Source: a virus
Lineage: Duplodnaviria; Heunggongvirae; Uroviricota; Caudoviricetes
Virus record (IMG/VR): IMGVR_UViG_2690315922_000022
Coordinates: 1 to 25,367 of that record
Length of the DNA: 25,367 nucleotides
Strand: one strand, 5' to 3'
The notes beneath the pieces were generated by a model, which saw nothing but the letters and a program-made list of their open reading frames with translations, was not told where the DNA came from and ran no database searches. Positions within the stretch are counted from its first letter, which is position 1; each line of letters starts with the position of its first letter. Positions 1 to 9,474 of the stretch are shown piece by piece. A program made the position numbers and the translations under genes.

Positions 1-1158
1 ATGCTCACCGTTAAACAGATTGAAGCGGCAAAGCCGAAAGAGAAACCATACCGACTTGTTGATGGTAATGGTCTGTACCTTTATGTCCCTGTATCCGGAA
101 AAAAGGTCTGGCAGCTTCGCTACAAGATTGACGGTAAAGAGAAAATCCTGACTGTCGGAAAATATCCGCTTATGACTTTGCAGGAGGCAAGGAATAAAGC
201 ATGGACTGCGAGGAAAGACATCTCGGTTGGCATAGATCCGGTAAAGGCGAAAAAGGCTTCGTCTAACAACAATTCTTTTAGTGCAATTTACAAGGAATGG
301 TACGAGCACAAGAAGCAAGTTTGGTCGGTAGGCTATGCAAATGAACTTGCAAAAATGTTTGATGACGACATTTTACCTATCATCGGCAGCCTTGAAATTC
401 AGGATATTGAGCCGATGCAACTTCTTGAAGTAATCCGCAGGTTTGAAGATCGCGGTGCAATGGAGCGAGCCAACAAAGCACGCAGAAGATGCGGCGAGGT
501 TTTCCGTTACGCTATTGTCACCGGAAGGGCTAAATATAACCCAGCACCTGACCTTGCAGACGCCATGAAAGGATACCGCAAGAAGAACTTCCCGTTTCTT
601 CCTGCAGACCAGATCCCGGCATTCAACAAAGCACTGGCAACATTTTCAGGAAGTATCGTATCGCTCATTGCGACCAAAGTTTTACGCTACACAGCCCTAA
701 GAACGAAAGAGCTTCGTTCCATGCTATGGAAGAACGTCGATTTTGAAAACAGGATTATCACCATTGACGCCAGTGTGATGAAGGGACGCAAAATTCATGT
801 GGTTCCTATGTCAGACCAGGTAGTTGAACTTCTCACTACGCTAATCTCAATCACCAAACCAGTATCAGAGTTTGTTTTTGCCGGGCGCAACGATAAGAAG
901 AAGCCAATCTGTGAGAACGCAGTGCTACTTGTGATCAAACAAATCGGATATGAGGGTCTGGAAAGCGGTCACGGATTCAGGCATGAATTCAGCACGATTA
1001 TGAACGAGCACGAATGGCCCGCTGATGCTATTGAAGTGCAACTGGCACATGCCAACGGCGGTTCTGTGCGTGGAATTTACAACCATGCTCAGTATCTCGA
1101 TAAGCGCAGAGAAATGATGCAGTGGTGGGCGGACTGGCTTGATGAAAAGGTGGAGTGA
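1..1158 (+). CDS. int: Phage integrase, P4-type tyrosine recombinase (IntS / Sf6-Int-like); N-terminal arm-binding domain plus C-terminal catalytic domain
   Basis: 385-aa ORF starting at window base 1 (MLTVKQIEAAKPKEKPYRL...); C-terminal GHGFRHEF and RGIYNHAQYLDKR motifs typical of tyrosine recombinases. I recognise it from memory as near-identical to E. coli CPS-53 IntS. A start upstream of the window cannot be excluded. Confidence 0.9.
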   Translation: MLTVKQIEAAKPKEKPYRLVDGNGLYLYVPVSGKKVWQLRYKIDGKEKILTVGKYPLMTLQEARNKAWTARKDISVGIDPVKAKKASSNNNSFSAIYKEWYEHKKQVWSVGYANELAKMFDDDILPIIGSLEIQDIEPMQLLEVIRRFEDRGAMERANKARRRCGEVFRYAIVTGRAKYNPAPDLADAMKGYRKKNFPFLPADQIPAFNKALATFSGSIVSLIATKVLRYTALRTKELRSMLWKNVDFENRIITIDASVMKGRKIHVVPMSDQVVELLTTLISITKPVSEFVFAGRNDKKKPICENAVLLVIKQIGYEGLESGHGFRHEFSTIMNEHEWPADAIEVQLAHANGGSVRGIYNHAQYLDKRREMMQWWADWLDEKVE

Positions 1159-1182
1159 TCCGCCTTAAAAACTATCGAATAG

Positions 1183-1230
1183 CACAAAGCCTTGCAATCC
1201 AGTGAAAAGCTTTGTGTGTATGAGTTTTTT
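1183..1230 (+). terminator. Putative int 3' stem-loop: 8-bp inverted repeat CACAAAGC...GCTTTGTG followed by a T6 run
   Basis: Perfect 8-bp inverted repeat at 1183-1190 / 1209-1216 with an 18-nt loop, then TTTTTT at 1225-1230. Loop length and spacing are non-canonical. Confidence 0.3.
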
Positions 1231-1311
1231 CTCATCAACTACCGCAAGTCATCGATCGATTGAGACTAGGATGATAGACTCCATGCCTTTAATTATTAGC
1301 TGATAGAAGAA

Positions 1312-1674
1312 ATGTTAAAGCTATTTGCAAAGTACACCTCGATTGGTGTGCTAAACACACTTATACACTGGGTGGTTTTTGGTGTCTGTATCTATGCAGC
1401 GCATACAAATCAGGCTCTGGCAAACTTCGCAGGTTTCGTTGTGGCAGTGAGCTTTAGCTTCTTCGCGAATGCAAAATTCACATTCAAAGCATCGGCTACA
1501 ACGATGCGCTACATGTTATATGTCACGTTCATGGGAGCGCTTAGCGCTGCTGTTGGATGGGCTGCTGATAGATGCGCACTTCCCCCAATCATTACTCTTA
1601 TAACCTCCTCCGCCATCAGCCTGGTGTGCGGTTTCGTCTATTCAAGGTTAATTGTCTTTAGGAGTGCGAAATGA
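1312..1674 (+). CDS. gtrA: GtrA, bactoprenol-linked glucose translocase (flippase), small 4-TM membrane protein
   Basis: 120-aa hydrophobic protein immediately downstream of int, overlapping the next gene by 4 nt (ATGA); size and sequence are typical of GtrA in serotype-converting phages. Confidence 0.9.
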
Positions 1675-2594
1675 AGATATCTCTTGTAGTTCCTGTCTTC
1701 AATGAAGAAGAGGCGATACCAATTTTTTATAAAACGGTGCGTGAATTCGAAGAGTTGAAGCCATATGAAGTAGAAATTGTTTTTATAAATGATGGTAGCA
1801 AAGACGCTACTGAGTCAATTATTAATGCTCTGGCTGTTTCAGATCCTCTAGTTATTCCTCTGTCATTTACTCGCAACTTTGGTAAAGAACCAGCATTGTT
1901 TGCAGGGTTAGACCATGCTACTGGAGATGCCGTGATTCCAATTGATGTTGACCTGCAAGACCCGATTGAGGTTATCCCTCATCTTATTGAAAACTGGCAG
2001 GCTGGCGCCGATATGGTGCTGGCAAAGCGTTCAGACCGCTCTACAGATGGGCGTCTGAAGCGCAAGACAGCAGAGTGGTTTTATAAGCTTCACAATAAAA
2101 TCAGCAATCCGAAGATCGAGGAAAATGTTGGCGATTTCCGGCTGATGTCCCGCGATGTAGTGGATAATATTAAGCTTATGCCAGAACGCAATCTTTTCAT
2201 GAAAGGCATTCTTAGTTGGGTTGGTGGGTCTACAGATGTAGTTGAGTATGTCCGTGCTGAGCGGATAGCCGGCAGCACGAAATTCAATGGATGGAAATTA
2301 TGGAACCTAGCACTTGAAGGTATAACAAGTTTCTCCACTTTCCCTCTGCGTATGTGGACTTATATTGGGCTATTCGTAGCTGGAATGGCTCTTTTATATG
2401 GCACATGGATGATTATCGATACCTTGGTGTTTGGGAATCCGGTTCGCGGTTACCCATCACTTATTGTATCCATTCTCTTCTTAGGCGGAATTCAGCTTAT
2501 AGGAATTGGCGTACTTGGTGAATATATAGGAAGAATTTACATAGAGTGCAAAGATAGACCTAGATTTATTATCAAGAGAATGAAAAATGAATAA
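1671..2594 (+). CDS. gtrB: GtrB, bactoprenol glucosyltransferase (GT2 family)
   Basis: 307 aa; N-terminal GT2 signature ([23 protein letters not shown]) and two C-terminal TM helices; coupled to gtrA and to the downstream gene by overlapping stop/start. Confidence 0.92.
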
Positions 2595-4017
2595 AACAAT
2601 TAAAATCAACTTCTACATACTATTTATTATTTTGTTTTTTATTATAACATGTAATATTTACTACTATGATGATGTATTTAGATCGTATTGGGGATATTAT
2701 GGTTGGTCTGAAGATGGAAGGCCTTTTGCAGATTTATTCTATAAATTATTTATTTTCTTTAGATCTGAAAGCATACCAGATATTTACCCACTACCACTAA
2801 TTTTAACGTCTGTGCTTCTTGTTATATCACTAACAAAGGCATTGCAAAATATACTATCAAAAGATGGGGTTATAGTTAATATAACTTTTGCAATATTTAT
2901 GCTTAATCCTTTTCTTTTGTCTAATATGCTATTTAGATATGATGGTGCATTTATGATTTTATCTATTGCACTTTCGGCTATTCCGTTCATTTTTACAAAA
3001 AGTAGAACATTCGCCATATCATCACTACTGTGCCTAACAATATCGCTTGGATTGTATCAGGCCTCAATAAATGTGTATATTGGACTTGCATCAGTAGTGG
3101 TTGCAATGGAAGCATTGAAAGGGGAAAAGTTTACATCTATAGCCAGCAGAGTGCTATTATCTGTTACATGCGTAGTCTCTTCATATGTTATATACTCAAA
3201 ATTAATACTTGAATCATTATCTTTAAATAATAACTTCTCGAAATATGCTCAAATAGTTGAATTAAATAAAGGAGGAGTCATCAATGTTTATGAGAATATA
3301 ATTAACGCAGTTAAAAAAATTGATGTTGCTCTTCATAGTGGTATTGGAACACCTCTTTATATATTTCTATCAATAATAGCCATATCATCTGTGTGTGTTG
3401 CCATTAAACGAAAACAATTTCAGTTACTATTTTTTATTGCTATATCTATTTTAGGTTGTTTCTTTTCTTCTTTTGGTGTGTCTGTCTTTGGGAAATCGCC
3501 AGTATTTGTGTCAAGGATATTTATCGGATTTGGTGTTTTTATAATGGCAGTTCCTTTGATTGGCTCAGCACTTCTTAATTGGAAACTTAATTACTTACTA
3601 TCATTATTCATTGCAATTCCTATGCTGTCCATCTTTTTTGCCACCATTAATGCCTCAAGAGAGGAATTTAAATTCCAAAACAATTTATCACTTCAAATGA
3701 TTAATGATATTAATCATAGCAAAGCTAAATATCTCGACTTTGTTGTTATTGATGGCTATGCGAAGAACTCCTCTGTTGCAAGCATAAATAAGAAAATATT
3801 TCCCGTAATATCTGATATATTGCCTCCTGTCTTTACAAATAGATATGATGGTGGGGTTTTTACATTGATGAGAAATGGACTAAAAGATGTTGTTAGTGCT
3901 GAGTCATCAGCTGCAGACAACGCGGTATCAATATCAGATGACGGAAATCTAATTTCTGACAATAATATATATAGCATTCATGCGACCAAAGATATTATTG
4001 TAATAAAATTAAAATAA
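2587..4017 (+). CDS. Serotype-specific O-antigen glucosyltransferase (GtrC-type polytopic membrane protein); exact specificity not identifiable
   Basis: 476-aa multi-TM protein as third gene of the gtr operon; very AT-rich compared with gtrAB, as is typical of horizontally acquired type-specific gtr genes. Confidence 0.8.
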
Positions 4018-4084: not shown

Positions 4085-6148
4085 CTAAGAAAAAATCCAA
4101 TTACCATACATTCCAGTTATTTCACTATATGTGCCTTCTTTATTTTTTAATTTAATCCAAGCGCCGAATTCAGTGGTGGCTACTTGCGTTACTTCTGAAG
4201 AGTTACTTACAAACCTTATATTTGCTACACCTATTGCTCTACTTGGTGATGAGATTGTCATAGCTCTTATTATTTTTAACTCTCTGAAATCACCAGTGCT
4301 ACTTGCAATTATATCAATATCATTAGTGCTATGGTTAAATATAATGGTGTTATTTAACAGCTTTGTATTTTGAAAAGATGTTATTGTGGCAATCCCTCCA
4401 ATAAATCCTCTTATCTGGGCCGGGCCAGTATCTCCACTATCATAGGCTAATGATGTGGTTATATTATCTTCCTCCTTTCCTATATGTATATCAATAAAGT
4501 ACTCTTTTAAACTAATACCAGCCAAAACTAAAAATGTTGATATAGTAGATGTACATTTTTTAATAACCAGATTCTTAAAATTTCGAGATAACCCGCTGCT
4601 TATTGGATCAATAGTTCTAGGTAATAATCTGATTATTTTATCCCCACCAGCTATAGTAGTTTCATCAACAATTTCACCTATTTCCACAAAAAGGCGGTCA
4701 TCCCCCAGCATTTCAAAAACACAAAAGTCTAAAGGAGACGTTTTAAATACCACTCTATCAATTAAGATTTTCCCTATACCATTTCCCATAACTCTAGTAG
4801 CTGTCACCCCTCTGTTAGTCACATTCGTTAGTGTTGTATTCCCCGAGATGATTACATCAGCTACAAGACTGTCAGGGAAAATATTAAGTTCCAAACCAGT
4901 ATACGCACCATTGATGTATGGGTTTGAGATTTCACAATTAATCAGCCGAGGGACAGTGTGTCCAGGCACACTTTCGTCTGCCTCTGGTTCAATATCTATG
5001 CCAGATTTCGGCATAGCACCTGTAACACCTCCGTAGTCACCAATATTATAAATCTCAGGATTAACTATTATTATGTTTTCACCTGACGTTAGGCTTATAC
5101 CGTTACGCCTGCATTGTTTGATGATCGGTTTTTCTATATAGATATTTTCTGGGACCGTGCCATCGGTAGTCCCCCACTTCATGCCTATATATATTCCGTC
5201 GCCAAACATGTTGGTATACAGTCCACCAATAATACGAATATTAGAGGATTGAAGTATTGTAAGCCCCCACCCATGTTCTCCTTCGGATGTGTTTGTTAAC
5301 CGATCACCTTCCAGTACAGGATTATAAATATTTACATTTTTAACACCGTTTGCTATGTAAATGATATGGCTTTGTGGCCTGTTTTGATTTGCTAGTTTTA
5401 ATGCCCCATCCTTTTCAAACCTTATAGTGCTATTATCTACGCATCTTAACACAGATTTAAAAGCATCATTTCCAGGTGAAAAAGGGTCTTCATTCACAGC
5501 CATCAAGTTTTCAAATGATTTATCTATAATGAATTCTGCACCAATAGACGCTGCGGATTCATACGCTTTTTGTAGTGTTTGTGCGTCATTGCAAAAATCA
5601 GAAGCATAAATAGAGCTGGTTTTCTTTAATTCAAATATCCTACCGTTTCTGCTCCTGATAATTAATATTCCATCTGGGGTGAGCGTGGGGGTGGATGATT
5701 CATAAACATATCTACCATGAATCATTACATGATTAAATATATCTGGGACATCCTCTTGCTCTATATTAATAGCAACATATATAAGTTTATTACTTAACTC
5801 CCCCCTTAACTGATCAGGGTCATACTTCAGCACATTCTGGAAATAGAACTGCTGTACGCCATACGCATCATAAACAGCCATAGAATGGCCTTGCACGGTT
5901 ACGAACTTGGCAATCTGTCCGTTATATACAGGGTAACCAGCAGCGTTAATGATGATTGGTTGCGATACAGGAACGTGAGAGCCGTCTTCGTTCTCCACAT
6001 AAACCTGAATCTGGTTTTCAGGATTTACCGGGTCAGTATCAATTTTACCGATATAAATTTTGCCATTAGCTACGGCTTTAAAAGAACGCGCCATAGTGAA
6101 GAGTTGCGAAGGCATGCTAACTACAACATTGGCTGTAATGTCTGTCAT
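4085..6148 (-). CDS. Tailspike protein: P22/Sf6-type N-terminal head-binding domain plus divergent right-handed beta-helix receptor-binding domain (probable O-antigen depolymerase)
   Basis: 687 aa; the first ~110 aa ([34 protein letters not shown]...KYDPDQ) match the conserved tailspike N-terminal domain as I recall it; the remainder is AT-rich with beta-helix-like repeats ([22 protein letters not shown]); GGAG RBS 9 nt upstream. Confidence 0.85.
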
Positions 6149-6204
6149 TTAATTTGCTCCAGATACAAGGAATCGCCGCAGCATGGCTACGGTGAATTTT
6201 GGGC

Positions 6205-6230
6205 ATAAAAAAACCCAGCCGAAGCTGGGT
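6205..6230 (-). terminator. Intrinsic terminator downstream of ant
   Basis: On the minus strand: CCCAGC-TTCG-GCTGGG hairpin followed by a T7 run, about 20 nt after the ant stop codon. Confidence 0.55.
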
Positions 6231-6248
6231 CGTTGCGTTGGTTATCTG

Positions 6249-7127
6249 TCAGTAGTTATGTACTGAAGGAGGTAATTCTTTATTCTTAAGTCTCATCCAT
6301 GCGGAAAGATTCGTTGGTCCGTCTGGCTCATTAATATCAACATCTCGTGTGTGATTGATTAAAACGTCTCTCGCCATTCCGATAACATACGAGAACTCAT
6401 GACCGTAGTCGTAGCATCTGCCGGAATAGTTCGATTGAATTTGTTTTAGCGCCGGATACAGTTCGCGGAATAATGCCTGTGAGCGGTTAGCATAATCCCA
6501 TAACCATACAAGGCTGTTTGCTTCTTTTGCAGAAAGCTCGTCGGTTTTCTTCTCTTGTTTGCCAATGAACTCGCCTTCAAGCACTACCCTGTGGATGTAC
6601 TCTACGGCCAGCGGGATTTGTTCAATTGAAAGTTCATCAATACTGTCAATACCAAAACGCTGATGAACCATATTGTATGCATCGTCATAGCGAAGTCCTT
6701 TCTTTCCTACCAGCATGTTTACTGCATCGCGTAGCGGTGTTCTTTCCTCAACAGTGGTTTTCTTTCCTTTTACATACTCGCCATGTTTGCGAATTGAAGG
6801 CAGAACTTCTGCTGTTACCCATTTGCGGAATTTGTGCGGGACTGAACCTTTATTGACTGCATCGCGGCAGCGCAGAACCAATGTATACATACCTGATTCG
6901 CTCACAATGCTTAGATTCTGCTCACCACCAAGGGTGTAACTTAAAGTTACTCCCTTTTCATCGTCATCAAGTGCAGTAAGCGCCTTGCGTGAGTTAGTCA
7001 AAGCTAAAGCATCACAAACATCTTTAGCTACAAACCACGGCTCACCGCACTTGTTGATGACGCGGATTTCACTGTCGCCGAATTTGAAGATGGTGAAATC
7101 GTTTTGTGCCTTTGCTATACTTTTCAT
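6249..7127 (-). CDS. ant: Antirepressor Ant (Bro-N / KilA-type N-terminal domain plus ANT C-terminal domain)
   Basis: 292 aa (P22 Ant is about 300 aa); N-terminal [11 protein letters not shown]...[14 protein letters not shown] motif; located immediately downstream of the arc-like gene as in P22 immI. Confidence 0.85.
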
Positions 7128-7199
7128 GTCAATATTTCCTAATCCGATTTGTTGATACCGAAGCCCTGACTGTTACAGCAGTTGGGGCTTCAACTTTTT
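7128..7199 (+). ncRNA. sar: Candidate sar-like antisense RNA covering the ant RBS and arc-ant intergenic region
   Basis: Plus-strand hairpin GAAGCCC (7160-7166) / GGGCTTC (7185-7191) followed by T5 (7195-7199), antisense to the ant leader; no plus-strand gene is upstream. The 5' end is not defined and promoter elements are weak. Confidence 0.3.
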
Positions 7200-7330
7200 A
7201 GGCTGCGAATAAGACGCTGCACTATTTCTGAATTTAAAGACCTGCCCTCCTCCTTAGCCTTTTCCTTCAATTTTTCTTTAATCTCTGGCGGGATACGAAT
7301 CCCTAATGGAGCGATATCTCTAACTTTCAT
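7190..7330 (-). CDS. arc: Arc-like ribbon-helix-helix repressor
   Basis: 46-aa product from the internal Met (MKVRDIAPLGIRIPPEIKEKLKEKAKEEGRSLNSEIVQRLIRSLKS) with the RHH signature GRS-NSEI; the 87-aa upstream extension is rejected because it would run across the divergent promoter into mnt. Confidence 0.6.
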   Translation of the reverse strand: MKVRDIAPLGIRIPPEIKEKLKEKAKEEGRSLNSEIVQRLIRSLKS

Positions 7331-7440
7331 TTCTTTCCCAATTGCTACACCATGATAACTAAATACTACACCGTGTTTATTTAAAGTCAAAATTTTTTTG
7401 CCTACACTGTGTAGCAATGCTACAGCGTGCAGGAGGAAAA
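7331..7440. promoter_or_regulatory. Divergent Pant / Pmnt promoter-operator region with four CTACAC-type repeats
   Basis: Minus strand: -35 TTGACT (7390-7385), 16-nt spacer, -10 TAGTAT (7368-7363). Palindromes ACACCGTGT (7368-7376) and CTACACTGTGTAG (7402-7414) plus GCTACACC and GCTACAGC copies; AGGAGG RBS sits 4 nt before the mnt ATG. Confidence 0.5.
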
Positions 7441-7689
7441 ATGAAAGGTGCAAGAGATATCAGTCCCTTGGGAATTAGGATTCCAGACTATTTAAAGAAA
7501 CGCATTCAGCAGGAAGCGGATAAAAACGGCAGATCAATGAACTCAGAGATTGTGCTTATCCTTCAAAAACATGTTGATAATCTTGATGGCCCTCGCTCAC
7601 TTGAAGGATTCGCTAACCAAGAAGCTGATAAATTCAAAGAGGCGCTGCTTGAGACGCTGAAAACCATGTATGGCAAGGATGAAAAATGA
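7441..7689 (+). CDS. mnt: Mnt-like ribbon-helix-helix repressor with C-terminal coiled-coil
   Basis: 82 aa from the Met preceded by AGGAGG; N-terminus RDISPLGIRIPDYLKKRIQQEADKNGRSMNSEI is an RHH fold; length matches P22 Mnt (83 aa); divergent from arc-ant. Confidence 0.7.
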   Translation: MKGARDISPLGIRIPDYLKKRIQQEADKNGRSMNSEIVLILQKHVDNLDGPRSLEGFANQEADKFKEALLETLKTMYGKDEK

Positions 7690-7895
7690 ACAAAAAACAG
7701 TTTATTAAGTCAACAACGTCAAGCAAGGAAGAGCTAGAGAAGGAGCTAAACTCCCTGAAATATGCTCTGTGCCTGGTTTACTCAAGACTGCCAATGGAAG
7801 ATAAAAACGCCATTTACAATGAAATGATTAACAGCCTTGATTTTAACGATAGAGACCTAGCATCCCACCTCAACAGCTTCCGCGTCCCTGAGTAA
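7686..7895 (+). CDS. Hypothetical 69-aa protein translationally coupled to mnt
   Basis: ATGA stop/start overlap with mnt; AAGGA RBS; AT-rich; no family recognised. Confidence 0.45.
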   Translation: MNKKQFIKSTTSSKEELEKELNSLKYALCLVYSRLPMEDKNAIYNEMINSLDFNDRDLASHLNSFRVPE

Positions 7896-8055
7896 TTCTA
7901 TTGCGGATTTGCTTCTTACGGTGGTTTAAGCTGGAGAGCTTGGCTTCTGCTTCTGATATTTGCGCATCAAGATCTTTAAGCTCAAGATCTGAAAGTCGCT
8001 GGTCAAGCAGGGTTTGGTTCAACTCAATGTTGTTCAGGCGTTCTTCTATGGTCAT
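7870..8055 (-). CDS. Hypothetical 62-aa coiled-coil protein
   Basis: Internal Met with strong RBS (AAGGAGAAATC-ATG); heptad-like sequence (LNNIELNQTLLDQRLSDLELKDLDAQISEAEAKL); its 3' end overlaps the convergent 69-aa gene by 26 nt. Confidence 0.4.
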   Translation of the reverse strand: MTIEERLNNIELNQTLLDQRLSDLELKDLDAQISEAEAKLSSLNHRKKQIRNRITQGRGSC

Positions 8056-8196
8056 GATTTCTCCTTGTTGAGGTTGATGTGAAACGATTGATTGTATACG
8101 CACTCTTTTGTTAGCTAGTAGCTTTGCTTAATCGCAAGATAAAGTTTCTGATTAATCCCTAAAAATCAAAAAATAAAGTTAAAACAGGTACATGAT

Positions 8197-8400
8197 ATGG
8201 AATGGATCATAGGATTTGTTGTTCTTGTCTTCATAGCCAGTATGTTTAAACCAAGAAGTTGCGATATCTGTGGTGCTGGATTTAAGAAAAAGTACTTCAC
8301 ATGGACTATCGATGGAAAGAAACAGCATCTTTGTCCGTACTGCAACAGTAAAATGGAGAGACGCAACAGCGATAGGCGCTTTAAGGATCGATTTGGTTAA
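8197..8400 (+). CDS. Hypothetical small membrane protein with zinc-ribbon-like C-terminus
   Basis: 67 aa: N-terminal TM helix (WIIGFVVLVFIASMF) followed by CDICG...CPYC, then a basic tail; terminator follows immediately. Confidence 0.5.
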   Translation: MEWIIGFVVLVFIASMFKPRSCDICGAGFKKKYFTWTIDGKKQHLCPYCNSKMERRNSDRRFKDRFG

Positions 8401-8413
8401 CCATTTTATCTCC

Positions 8414-8449
8414 AACAAAAAACCCACCTGACGGTGGGTTTCATTTCTT
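8414..8449. terminator. Bidirectional intrinsic terminator
   Basis: AACCCACC-TGAC-GGTGGGTT hairpin flanked by an A-run upstream and a T-rich tract downstream; lies between the convergent 8197-8400 (+) and 8448-8867 (-) genes. Confidence 0.55.
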
Positions 8450-8867
8450 AATCTTGCTTCGTGGAAGGTATAAGAGATGCATTTGCCTCTTTTGGCTTCA
8501 ATGTATACATCCCACCATTAAATGGATCAACAGCAAGCCAACCAATTAACCCACCAAACACAAGGTTTCCACCAATATACCAACCATTAGCATTGGCTTT
8601 GATTGGCAGGGTAACTGATTCGTACCCATCCTTTTCCATAGTGATCTGGTAGCTCTTTTTGCCAAAATAACTACCATCTGACTTGGCAAGAGTTACTCCT
8701 TGTGGAGTCTTGCCTTGCGCAACAATCACGCCTGATTCATCTTTTACCTTAAAGCTCGCACCGGAAGGGTTGCTGTTCACTTGCACAAGTTGCGTTTCAT
8801 CACCAACAATAGTTGCGCACCCAGATAACATCATAGCGCCAGCAACGACGCCAATAATCCTCTTCAT
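8448..8867 (-). CDS. Outer-membrane lipoprotein with PEGA-like beta-domain and glycine-rich hydrophobic C-terminal motif
   Basis: Signal peptide with lipobox (MKRIIGVVAGAMMLSGC, Ala at +2); mature region VNSNPSGASFKV...GKTP...EKDGYESVT fits the PEGA pattern; C-terminal GGNLVFGGLIGWLAVDPFNGGMY. An alternative start 12 nt upstream (MEIDMKR) is possible. Confidence 0.6.
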   Translation of the reverse strand: MKRIIGVVAGAMMLSGCATIVGDETQLVQVNSNPSGASFKVKDESGVIVAQGKTPQGVTLAKSDGSYFGKKSYQITMEKDGYESVTLPIKANANGWYIGGNLVFGGLIGWLAVDPFNGGMYTLKPKEANASLIPSTKQD

Positions 8868-8988
8868 ATCAATTTCCATATTTAAAAAACCGGAAACATC
8901 CTAATGACAAACCATTCAAATGTGAAGTAGGCAAAAGATGTTTACTTTTTTCATGATATCCTGTGAAAAACTAAGGAGAGTTAACCAT

Positions 8989-9474
8989 ATGAAAAAATCA
9001 CTGTTAATTATCCCGCTTCTGCTGGTTGGATGCGCAAAAGTAAGTGACTATCAAGCAAGTTGCGAACAACGCTATCACAAGCTTAGCGATATGGCTAATT
9101 GCCTTGATGCCAGTGTGAAGAACGACTCACGCATGGCATCAGCACCAACACCTAAGTTGTATGTCCTTGCTGCAAAGATGCTCGGGCAAGGTGTCGATGA
9201 AGGCAAGATAAGTGACGCACAGGCAAGGCTTGAGCTTCAGAATCTTTATGTTCAATTACAAAGCCAAGAACAAGCCCAACAAATAGCACAAAGCCAAGCA
9301 TTCCAGCAGGCTTTATTGAATTATCAGGCTGTAAACACAATGCAAGCGATCGAGCAAAAAGCGAGACAGCCTGTTATAACTCAACCCTATCCAACACGCG
9401 TTGACACTTACACAAACTGCAATTCAGGGTTTGGAAATACAGTCACATGCAACAGTAGCAGTAACATAAGATAA
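8989..9474 (+). CDS. Lipoprotein with Gln-rich coiled-coil region, function unknown
   Basis: Start at the internal Met preceded by AAGGAGAG RBS; lipobox signal MKKSLLIIPLLLVGC (Ala at +2); several Cys and a Q-rich helical segment; divergently transcribed from the neighbouring lipoprotein. Confidence 0.6.
   Translation: MKKSLLIIPLLLVGCAKVSDYQASCEQRYHKLSDMANCLDASVKNDSRMASAPTPKLYVLAAKMLGQGVDEGKISDAQARLELQNLYVQLQSQEQAQQIAQSQAFQQALLNYQAVNTMQAIEQKARQPVITQPYPTRVDTYTNCNSGFGNTVTCNSSSNIR

Follow-up and report, generated by a model that had tools for sequence, protein, structure and literature searches.

A predicted sar antisense RNA gene between arc and ant in a P22-like prophage

Positions 7128 to about 7196 on the plus strand of the 25,367-nucleotide stretch of viral DNA analyzed here (the window) very probably constitute a sar gene, located in the immI ("ant moron") region of a P22-like prophage. 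The initial annotation had described the 72 bases from 7128 to 7199 as the probable terminator of a sar-like antisense RNA. The antisense RNA with P22 architecture is supported by a full-length match to the Rfam sar family, by the expected neighboring genes and by a promoter-like site at the right distance. The word terminator is correct insofar as a plus-strand hairpin and a T-run are present, and it is incomplete because the coordinates enclose the entire RNA gene. The 72 bases are a complete sar gene of the P22 type, not a terminator alone. The feature is ordinary and its kind is already known, since it belongs to a curated family and stands in the canonical setting. Family membership, structure, genomic setting, promoter-motif conservation, covariation, and strand asymmetry are all directly supported.

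The whole window was scanned with Rfam at the gathering thresholds, and RF00262 (sar) was the sole family that matched anywhere in it. The match lies at 7129-7195 on the plus strand and scores 69.4 bits (E 1e-12), where the gathering score is 43 bits. It covers the full model (positions 1-68 of 68), and all 20 model pairs are canonical, with no non-canonical pair in either helix. In the identical test, P22's own sar, which occupies the equivalent position between ant and arc, scored 97.8 bits. A covariance model of our own, which was built from the homologue alignment and the window structure, gave 86.9 bits over 7128-7195. The plus strand at 7128-7199 reads GTCAATATTTCCTAATCCGATTTGTTGATACCGAAGCCCTGACTGTTACAGCAGTTGGGGCTTCAACTTTTT. 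The predicted sar RNA would be 68-69 nt long, and its 3' end could fall anywhere in the T-run, up to 7199. The RNA and the features around it are listed in Table 1.

Table 1. Features of the ant-sar-arc-mnt locus, with positions in the window and the basis of each assignment.
Feature	Position	Strand	Basis
ant, antirepressor gene, 292 aa, putative sar target	6249-7127	-	ORF list; Pfam Bro-N and P22_AR_C
Predicted Psar promoter	7093-7121	+	Promoter scan; inside ant codons 2-12 on the opposite strand
Predicted sar antisense RNA	7128-7196	+	RF00262, own covariance model, fold (z -7.4); ends from P22 lengths (PMC3134472) and Rfam model limits
SL1, 7-bp outer stem; apical region with anti-Shine-Dalgarno UUUCCU (7135-7140)	7128-7156	+	Fold
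SL2 and U-tract, predicted intrinsic terminator of sar	7160-7199	+	Terminator scan and fold
arc-like ribbon-helix-helix repressor gene, 46 aa	7190-7330	-	Pfam PF03869 (Arc), E 5e-13; 43% identity to P22 Arc
arc-mnt control region	7345-7430		Repeat search and promoter scan
mnt-like repressor gene, 82 aa, divergent from arc-ant	7441-7689	+	Pfam PF03869, E 6e-8; position as P22 mnt

The 72 nt fold into two hairpins (SL1 and SL2) with a free energy of -29.8 kcal/mol, compared with -11.5 ± 2.5 kcal/mol for 200 dinucleotide shuffles, none of which folded as well (z -7.4). The minimum-free-energy structure and the centroid structure are the same. The UUUCCU of SL1 is complementary to AGGAAA, the Shine-Dalgarno (SD) sequence of ant. 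A hairpin followed by a T5 run had been noticed at this place, and the terminator scan confirmed both: the SL2 stem (7160-7191) contains 14 pairs, of which 7 are G-C and 3 are G·U, closes on the loop UACA, and is followed by AACTTTTTAG, in which the spacer AAC precedes the T5 run at 7195-7199. The stem was first described as 7 bp long. These 7 bp (GAAGCCC/GGGCTTC) are its perfect Watson-Crick base, while the RNA stem extends to 14 pairs through the three G·U pairs. The interval from the ant ATG to the T-run, which had been put at about 70 nt, is 68 nt when counted from 7128 (the base after the ATG complement) to 7195 (the first T). Two statements about placement need correction. The hairpin is not wholly inside the arc-ant intergenic region: its 3' arm contains the stop codon of arc (complement of 7190-7192), and this codon and the last codons of arc overlap the sar 3' arm and the T-run. 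Nor does the terminator sit over the ant start; it is found where the spacer meets arc, and the ant ribosome site is covered by SL1, the 5' hairpin. The 3-nt spacer AAC between the stem and the U-run is not ideal for an intrinsic terminator, although P22 shares this spacer and has a U-run that is shorter still.

A promoter of its own is predicted for sar within the start of ant, where it would converge with the predicted ant promoter (Pant). The consensus match behind this prediction consists of a -35-like GTGAAA (7093-7098), a 17-nt spacer, and an extended -10, TGcTATACT (7113-7121), which together gave 9 of 12 matches in the promoter scan, with the TG present. The predicted -35 element GTGAAA is weak. 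The -10 region, TTGCTATACT, is identical in the window and in P22 and stands at the equivalent place. The predicted +1, at about 7128, is the base after the ant CAT, lies one base from the ant ATG, and coincides with position 1 of sar in P22 and in the Rfam model. IMG/VR was scanned with the SL2 pattern, which returned at least 120 loci comprising 76 distinct 132-nt versions. The ant CAT follows TGnTAnnnT at a distance of exactly 3 nt in 75 of these 76 versions, and the motif is kept despite differing Ant N-termini (MKSIAKA, MNSIAIL, MSSLAKS, and others). Across the 76 versions, SL2 lies 30-34 nt from +1.

A plain MAFFT alignment left the SL1 arms out of register, and the alignment was rebuilt with a covariance model made from the alignment and the window structure. 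Thirty-two hits were realigned, which gave 31 distinct rows; weak reverse-strand hits were excluded. In this model-fitted alignment of 31 distinct sequences, 94% of the pair cells hold standard pairs, a value that reflects in part an alignment fitted to the structure and the use of SL2 as the search anchor for most homologues. When the 3' partners were slid by 1-3 columns as a control, 32-45% of the cells were paired. Six pairs show changes on both sides, compared with 2.7 ± 0.6 in shuffles, and none of 500 shuffles reached six. In SL1, four of the seven pairs have changed on both sides across the homologues, and an equivalent 5' hairpin starting from +1, with a pyrimidine-rich apical anti-SD, was found in all 13 distinct SL1 allele types. 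The complementarity of own arms exceeds that of crossed arms (5.7 versus 4.3 of 6), a modest contrast since G·U pairs tolerate many combinations. In SL2, 99.8% of the pair cells are paired across the 31 sequences, a near-invariance that is partly by construction, since SL2 was the search anchor. Two both-sided changes occur in SL2, both from Edwardsiella phage Edno5; the remaining SL2 changes in GF-2 and Edno5 affect one side only and leave the pairing intact. The sar-like elements of these Edwardsiella phages are divergent (GF-2, L125 1617-1683; Edno5, L126 1602-1668). They scored 44-47 bits with our own model, and Rfam at the gathering threshold gave no sar match in either phage.

The uniformity of SL2 could also be read in terms of DNA, with the hairpin serving mainly as a mosaic boundary for arc/ant recombination and no functional plus-strand RNA being made. 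SL2 is identical in at least 120 IMG/VR loci with both flanks of many types, although SL2 was itself the search pattern and this count carries an ascertainment bias. The three main SL1/ant classes occur joined across SL2 to six or more different arc 3' classes apiece, and the CUS-3 record annotates a boundary sequence, bsq2, at this place. As a full account this is improbable, because it fails to account for an extended -10 conserved at constant spacing, for compensatory SL1 changes, for G·U pairs by which the hairpin is strong on the plus strand only, and for SL2 variation in the Edwardsiella phages that preserves the pairing. The DNA-boundary and RNA roles are compatible, and the former is an addition to the latter more than a rival.

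A tentative extension of the sar reading combines the two roles. SL2 may possibly act as a universal recombination joint, through which arc and ant alleles reassort and the module moves between podoviruses and siphoviruses, while the SL1 classes form specificity groups. Around the 32-nt SL2 (loci L005-L124), 29 left types (Psar/ant 5'/SL1) and 23 right types (arc 3') are found in many combinations. The SL1 half falls into at least five classes, and cross-class duplexes have energies of -8 to -34 kcal/mol, compared with about -50 kcal/mol for cognate duplexes. The proposal fits both the reassortment table and the duplex energies; the shared SL2 half alone might be enough for cross-pairing. If the proposal is true, the sar RNAs of co-resident or superinfecting P22-like phages would not silence each other's ant.

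The two strands of the locus differ in their ability to fold. The minus strand, which corresponds to the ant mRNA, has a fold z of -0.76, no better than shuffles. A hairpin does form there (8 + 4 pairs), exactly at the arc stop codon, and SL2 might on this ground be an element of the minus-strand arc-ant mRNA, for instance one for processing or stability, or a partial terminator. This is very unlikely, as the G·U pairs of the plus strand become C·A mismatches that split the minus-strand stem, no U-run is present after the minus-strand hairpin at SL2, and both the SL1 covariation and the promoter motif would be left without explanation. A bidirectional terminator was rejected for lack of a minus-strand U-run and for the broken stem. 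The 3' end of sar carries a rho-independent terminator-like site by sequence, in the sar direction only. As part of sar, SL2 is predicted to work as a terminator in the plus direction only, given the C·A mismatches in the minus-strand stem and its lack of a U-run, and arc-ant and late-operon transcripts would pass through it. This passage fits what the co-transcription of arc, ant, and the tailspike gene requires. A small protein was also considered at this locus: a 31-aa ORF (7106-7201, plus strand) has a frame that is open in several alleles, and it was rejected because the peptide is conserved only where SL2 is.

It was correctly stated at the outset that no plus-strand gene lies upstream of the hairpin. 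Positions 4085-7127 hold the minus-strand tailspike gene (4085-6148) and ant, and the plus strand there contains only short mechanical ORFs. It is hardly credible that the terminator merely stops stray plus-strand transcription through the tailspike gene and ant, such as read-through from the upstream plus-strand gtrABC (1312-4017), with no regulation involved, since gtrABC is 3 kb away, a dedicated promoter motif lies 7 nt before 7128, and all 68 nt match the sar model, well beyond the terminator. The plus-strand region at 1-4017 contains an integrase gene followed by the gtrA-gtrB-gtrC O-antigen glucosylation cluster, which is adjacent to the tailspike gene. The Pfam match of the tailspike is limited to the head-binding domain, and its receptor-binding part differs from that of P22.

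The genes around sar are those of the P22 immI region. The ant ATG is the complement of 7125-7127, and its SD sequence, the complement of 7137-7140, lies 9 nt upstream. The arc-ant spacer is 62 nt long, and an RNA covering 7128-7196 spans this intercistronic region and is complementary to the ant SD. The gene order is as in P22: tailspike, ant, arc, divergent mnt, and then a gene-16 homologue, which places the locus between the tailspike gene and the gp16, gp20, and gp7 homologues. Pfam matches identified a Head_binding tailspike, an Ant with Bro-N and P22_AR_C, two Arc-family proteins, and Inj_translocase and P22_gp7 downstream. Elsewhere the window codes for an integrase, GtrA/B/C, the ejection proteins gp20 and gp7, a portal of the P22 type, and Rz. 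The locus is the "ant moron" of a P22-like prophage, located between the homologues of gene 16 and gene 9, which is where PMC2629481 places the ant moron in the P22-like phage group; the same paper lists Sar among the genes of phage epsilon34. The best phage record covers at most 56% of the window, and the nearest phages are Lederbergvirus phages of E. coli and Shigella, such as 720R6, Kapi1, CUS-3, and Sf6.

The arc-mnt control region contains four 11-nt boxes resembling CTACAC(C/T)GTGT, one of which is a perfect palindrome, CTACACTGTGTAG (7402-7414). A Pant-like promoter on the minus strand consists of TTGACT (7390-7385), a 16-nt spacer, and TAGTAT (7368-7363), and one of the boxes overlaps this predicted -10. 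From the layout of P22 immI, the boxes are probably the Arc/Mnt operators, with a sequence unlike that of the P22 operators.

We infer the transcription of sar, the RNA ends, the pairing, and the repression from homology with P22. P22 sar has been described as an RNA of 69 nt, antisense to the spacer between arc and ant, by which the ribosome site of ant is blocked (PMC7968456, PMC3134472, PMC2629481). Its length is given as 68-69 nt in PMC3134472; by pairing with the leader of ant it closes off the ribosome binding site (PMC7968456) and keeps Ant low (PMC11016777). The repression of ant translation by sar comes from P22 genetics cited in PMC7968456 and PMC11016777. PMC2629481 cites the primary studies of Liao et al. 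1987, Wu et al. 1987, and Schaefer and McClure 1997. P22 sar reads have been detected by RNA-seq in infected cells (PMC13397905). In PMC12111858, sar acts on PLATE transcripts, and its target is named there as arc, whereas the primary literature names ant.

By analogy with P22, RNA polymerase would start at the extended -10 Psar embedded in the first ant codons on the opposite strand, cross the 62-nt arc-ant spacer, and stop at the SL2 hairpin and U-run. The product would be a stable two-hairpin RNA, about 68-72 nt long and perfectly complementary to the ant mRNA leader from position -1 to about -68. Pairing of the SL1 anti-SD would occlude the ant ribosome binding site and block the synthesis of Ant. 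Transcripts from Pant would be subject to this repression, and so would those of the late operon that continue across arc-ant in the direction of the tailspike gene, which lies on the same strand. Because the moron lies in the late operon, on the ant strand, late transcripts would escape the control of Arc/Mnt at Pant, which would give sar a distinct task. Such an RNA would explain how Ant can stay silent even though ant lies inside the late operon.

The predicted RNA and P22 sar are alike in most of their architecture. Both run antisense between the base that precedes the ant ATG and the arc stop, both occupy the 68 model positions with two hairpins, and their SL2 sequences are identical except for one loop base. 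Both have the -10 sequence TTGCTATACT, with the ant-start CAT 3 nt beyond it, the stretch ACCGAAGCCCTGACTGTTAC.GCAGTTGGGGCTTCAACTTT, and the AAC spacer before the U-run. The immI gene set and its place in the late operon are also the same. In contrast, only 14 of 32 positions are identical in the SL1 half, which lies between these common elements, and the pairing kinetics studied in P22 therefore need not transfer. The anti-SD is UUUCCU in the window and CUCC in P22. The register of the SL1 stem differs by one base, compensatory changes having preserved the pairing, and the U-run is T5 in the window and T3 in P22. The window Arc has 46 aa, whereas P22 Arc has 53 aa, and the arc stop lies inside SL2 in the window and just beyond sar in P22. 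The N-terminal domain of the window Ant is Bro-N, unlike that of P22, while residues 122-264 (the C-terminal 143 aa) are 84% identical to P22 Ant.

Close relatives are found in P22-like phages and prophages of E. coli (Kapi1, CUS-3, and the PhiR12 phages), with 96-100% identity over the promoter and sar. The Rfam sar scores are 72.4 bits for Kapi1 and 69.4 bits for PhiR12_1. A 131-nt query was 100% identical in 478 of 5,426 complete E. coli genomes (about 9%). In PhiR12_1 and E. coli SCU-106 the module differs in location, as it is flanked there by the tail genes L and K of a lambda-like siphovirus and does not adjoin a podovirus tailspike gene. The ant-sar-arc-mnt module there (PhiR12_1, L003 2209-3685; SCU-106, L004 7129-9141) is 99-100% identical over sar and lies next to a ClpP-like protease gene. 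Its occurrence in lambda-like siphovirus phages and prophages indicates that the module moves between podovirus and siphovirus late operons. Lambda OOP RNA, P22 sas RNA, and the antisense RNA against the late-regulator gene 23 have different targets and no sequence relationship to sar. Like sar, they are short, carry an intrinsic terminator, are convergent with their target, and act as a secondary brake on a regulatory gene (PMC5415839, PMC13397905).

The main value of the finding lies in annotation, and it bears on no open question. None of the GenBank and RefSeq records examined carries an annotation of the sar RNA, despite its passing the Rfam threshold. At the identical 131 nt, E. coli RefSeq annotates only the flanking CDSs. 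The arc-like CDS is also annotated in PhiR12_1 and E. coli RefSeq, and the RefSeq annotation of the mnt-like gene is "Arc family DNA-binding protein". Recognition of sar fixes the start codon of ant. The annotated ant CDSs of Kapi1 (L002 1750-2694) and GF-2 (L125 822-1697) start upstream and run through sar into arc, and these starts appear to be annotated too far upstream.

Two other terminator-like hairpins, both strong, were observed near the locus. One (6212-6231, minus strand) lies directly after ant and before the tailspike gene, and late transcripts would have to read through it. The other (8420-8441, plus strand) follows a small ORF at 8197-8400. The rest of the ant moron, at 7686-9474, contains small genes without Pfam matches, including a 69-aa ORF that overlaps the mnt stop (ATGA). 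Two of the encoded proteins have lipoprotein-like signal peptides ending in Cys (8448-8879 on the minus strand; 8938 or 8989 to 9474 on the plus strand). The small genes at 7686-9474 are likely lysogenic-conversion or exclusion morons.
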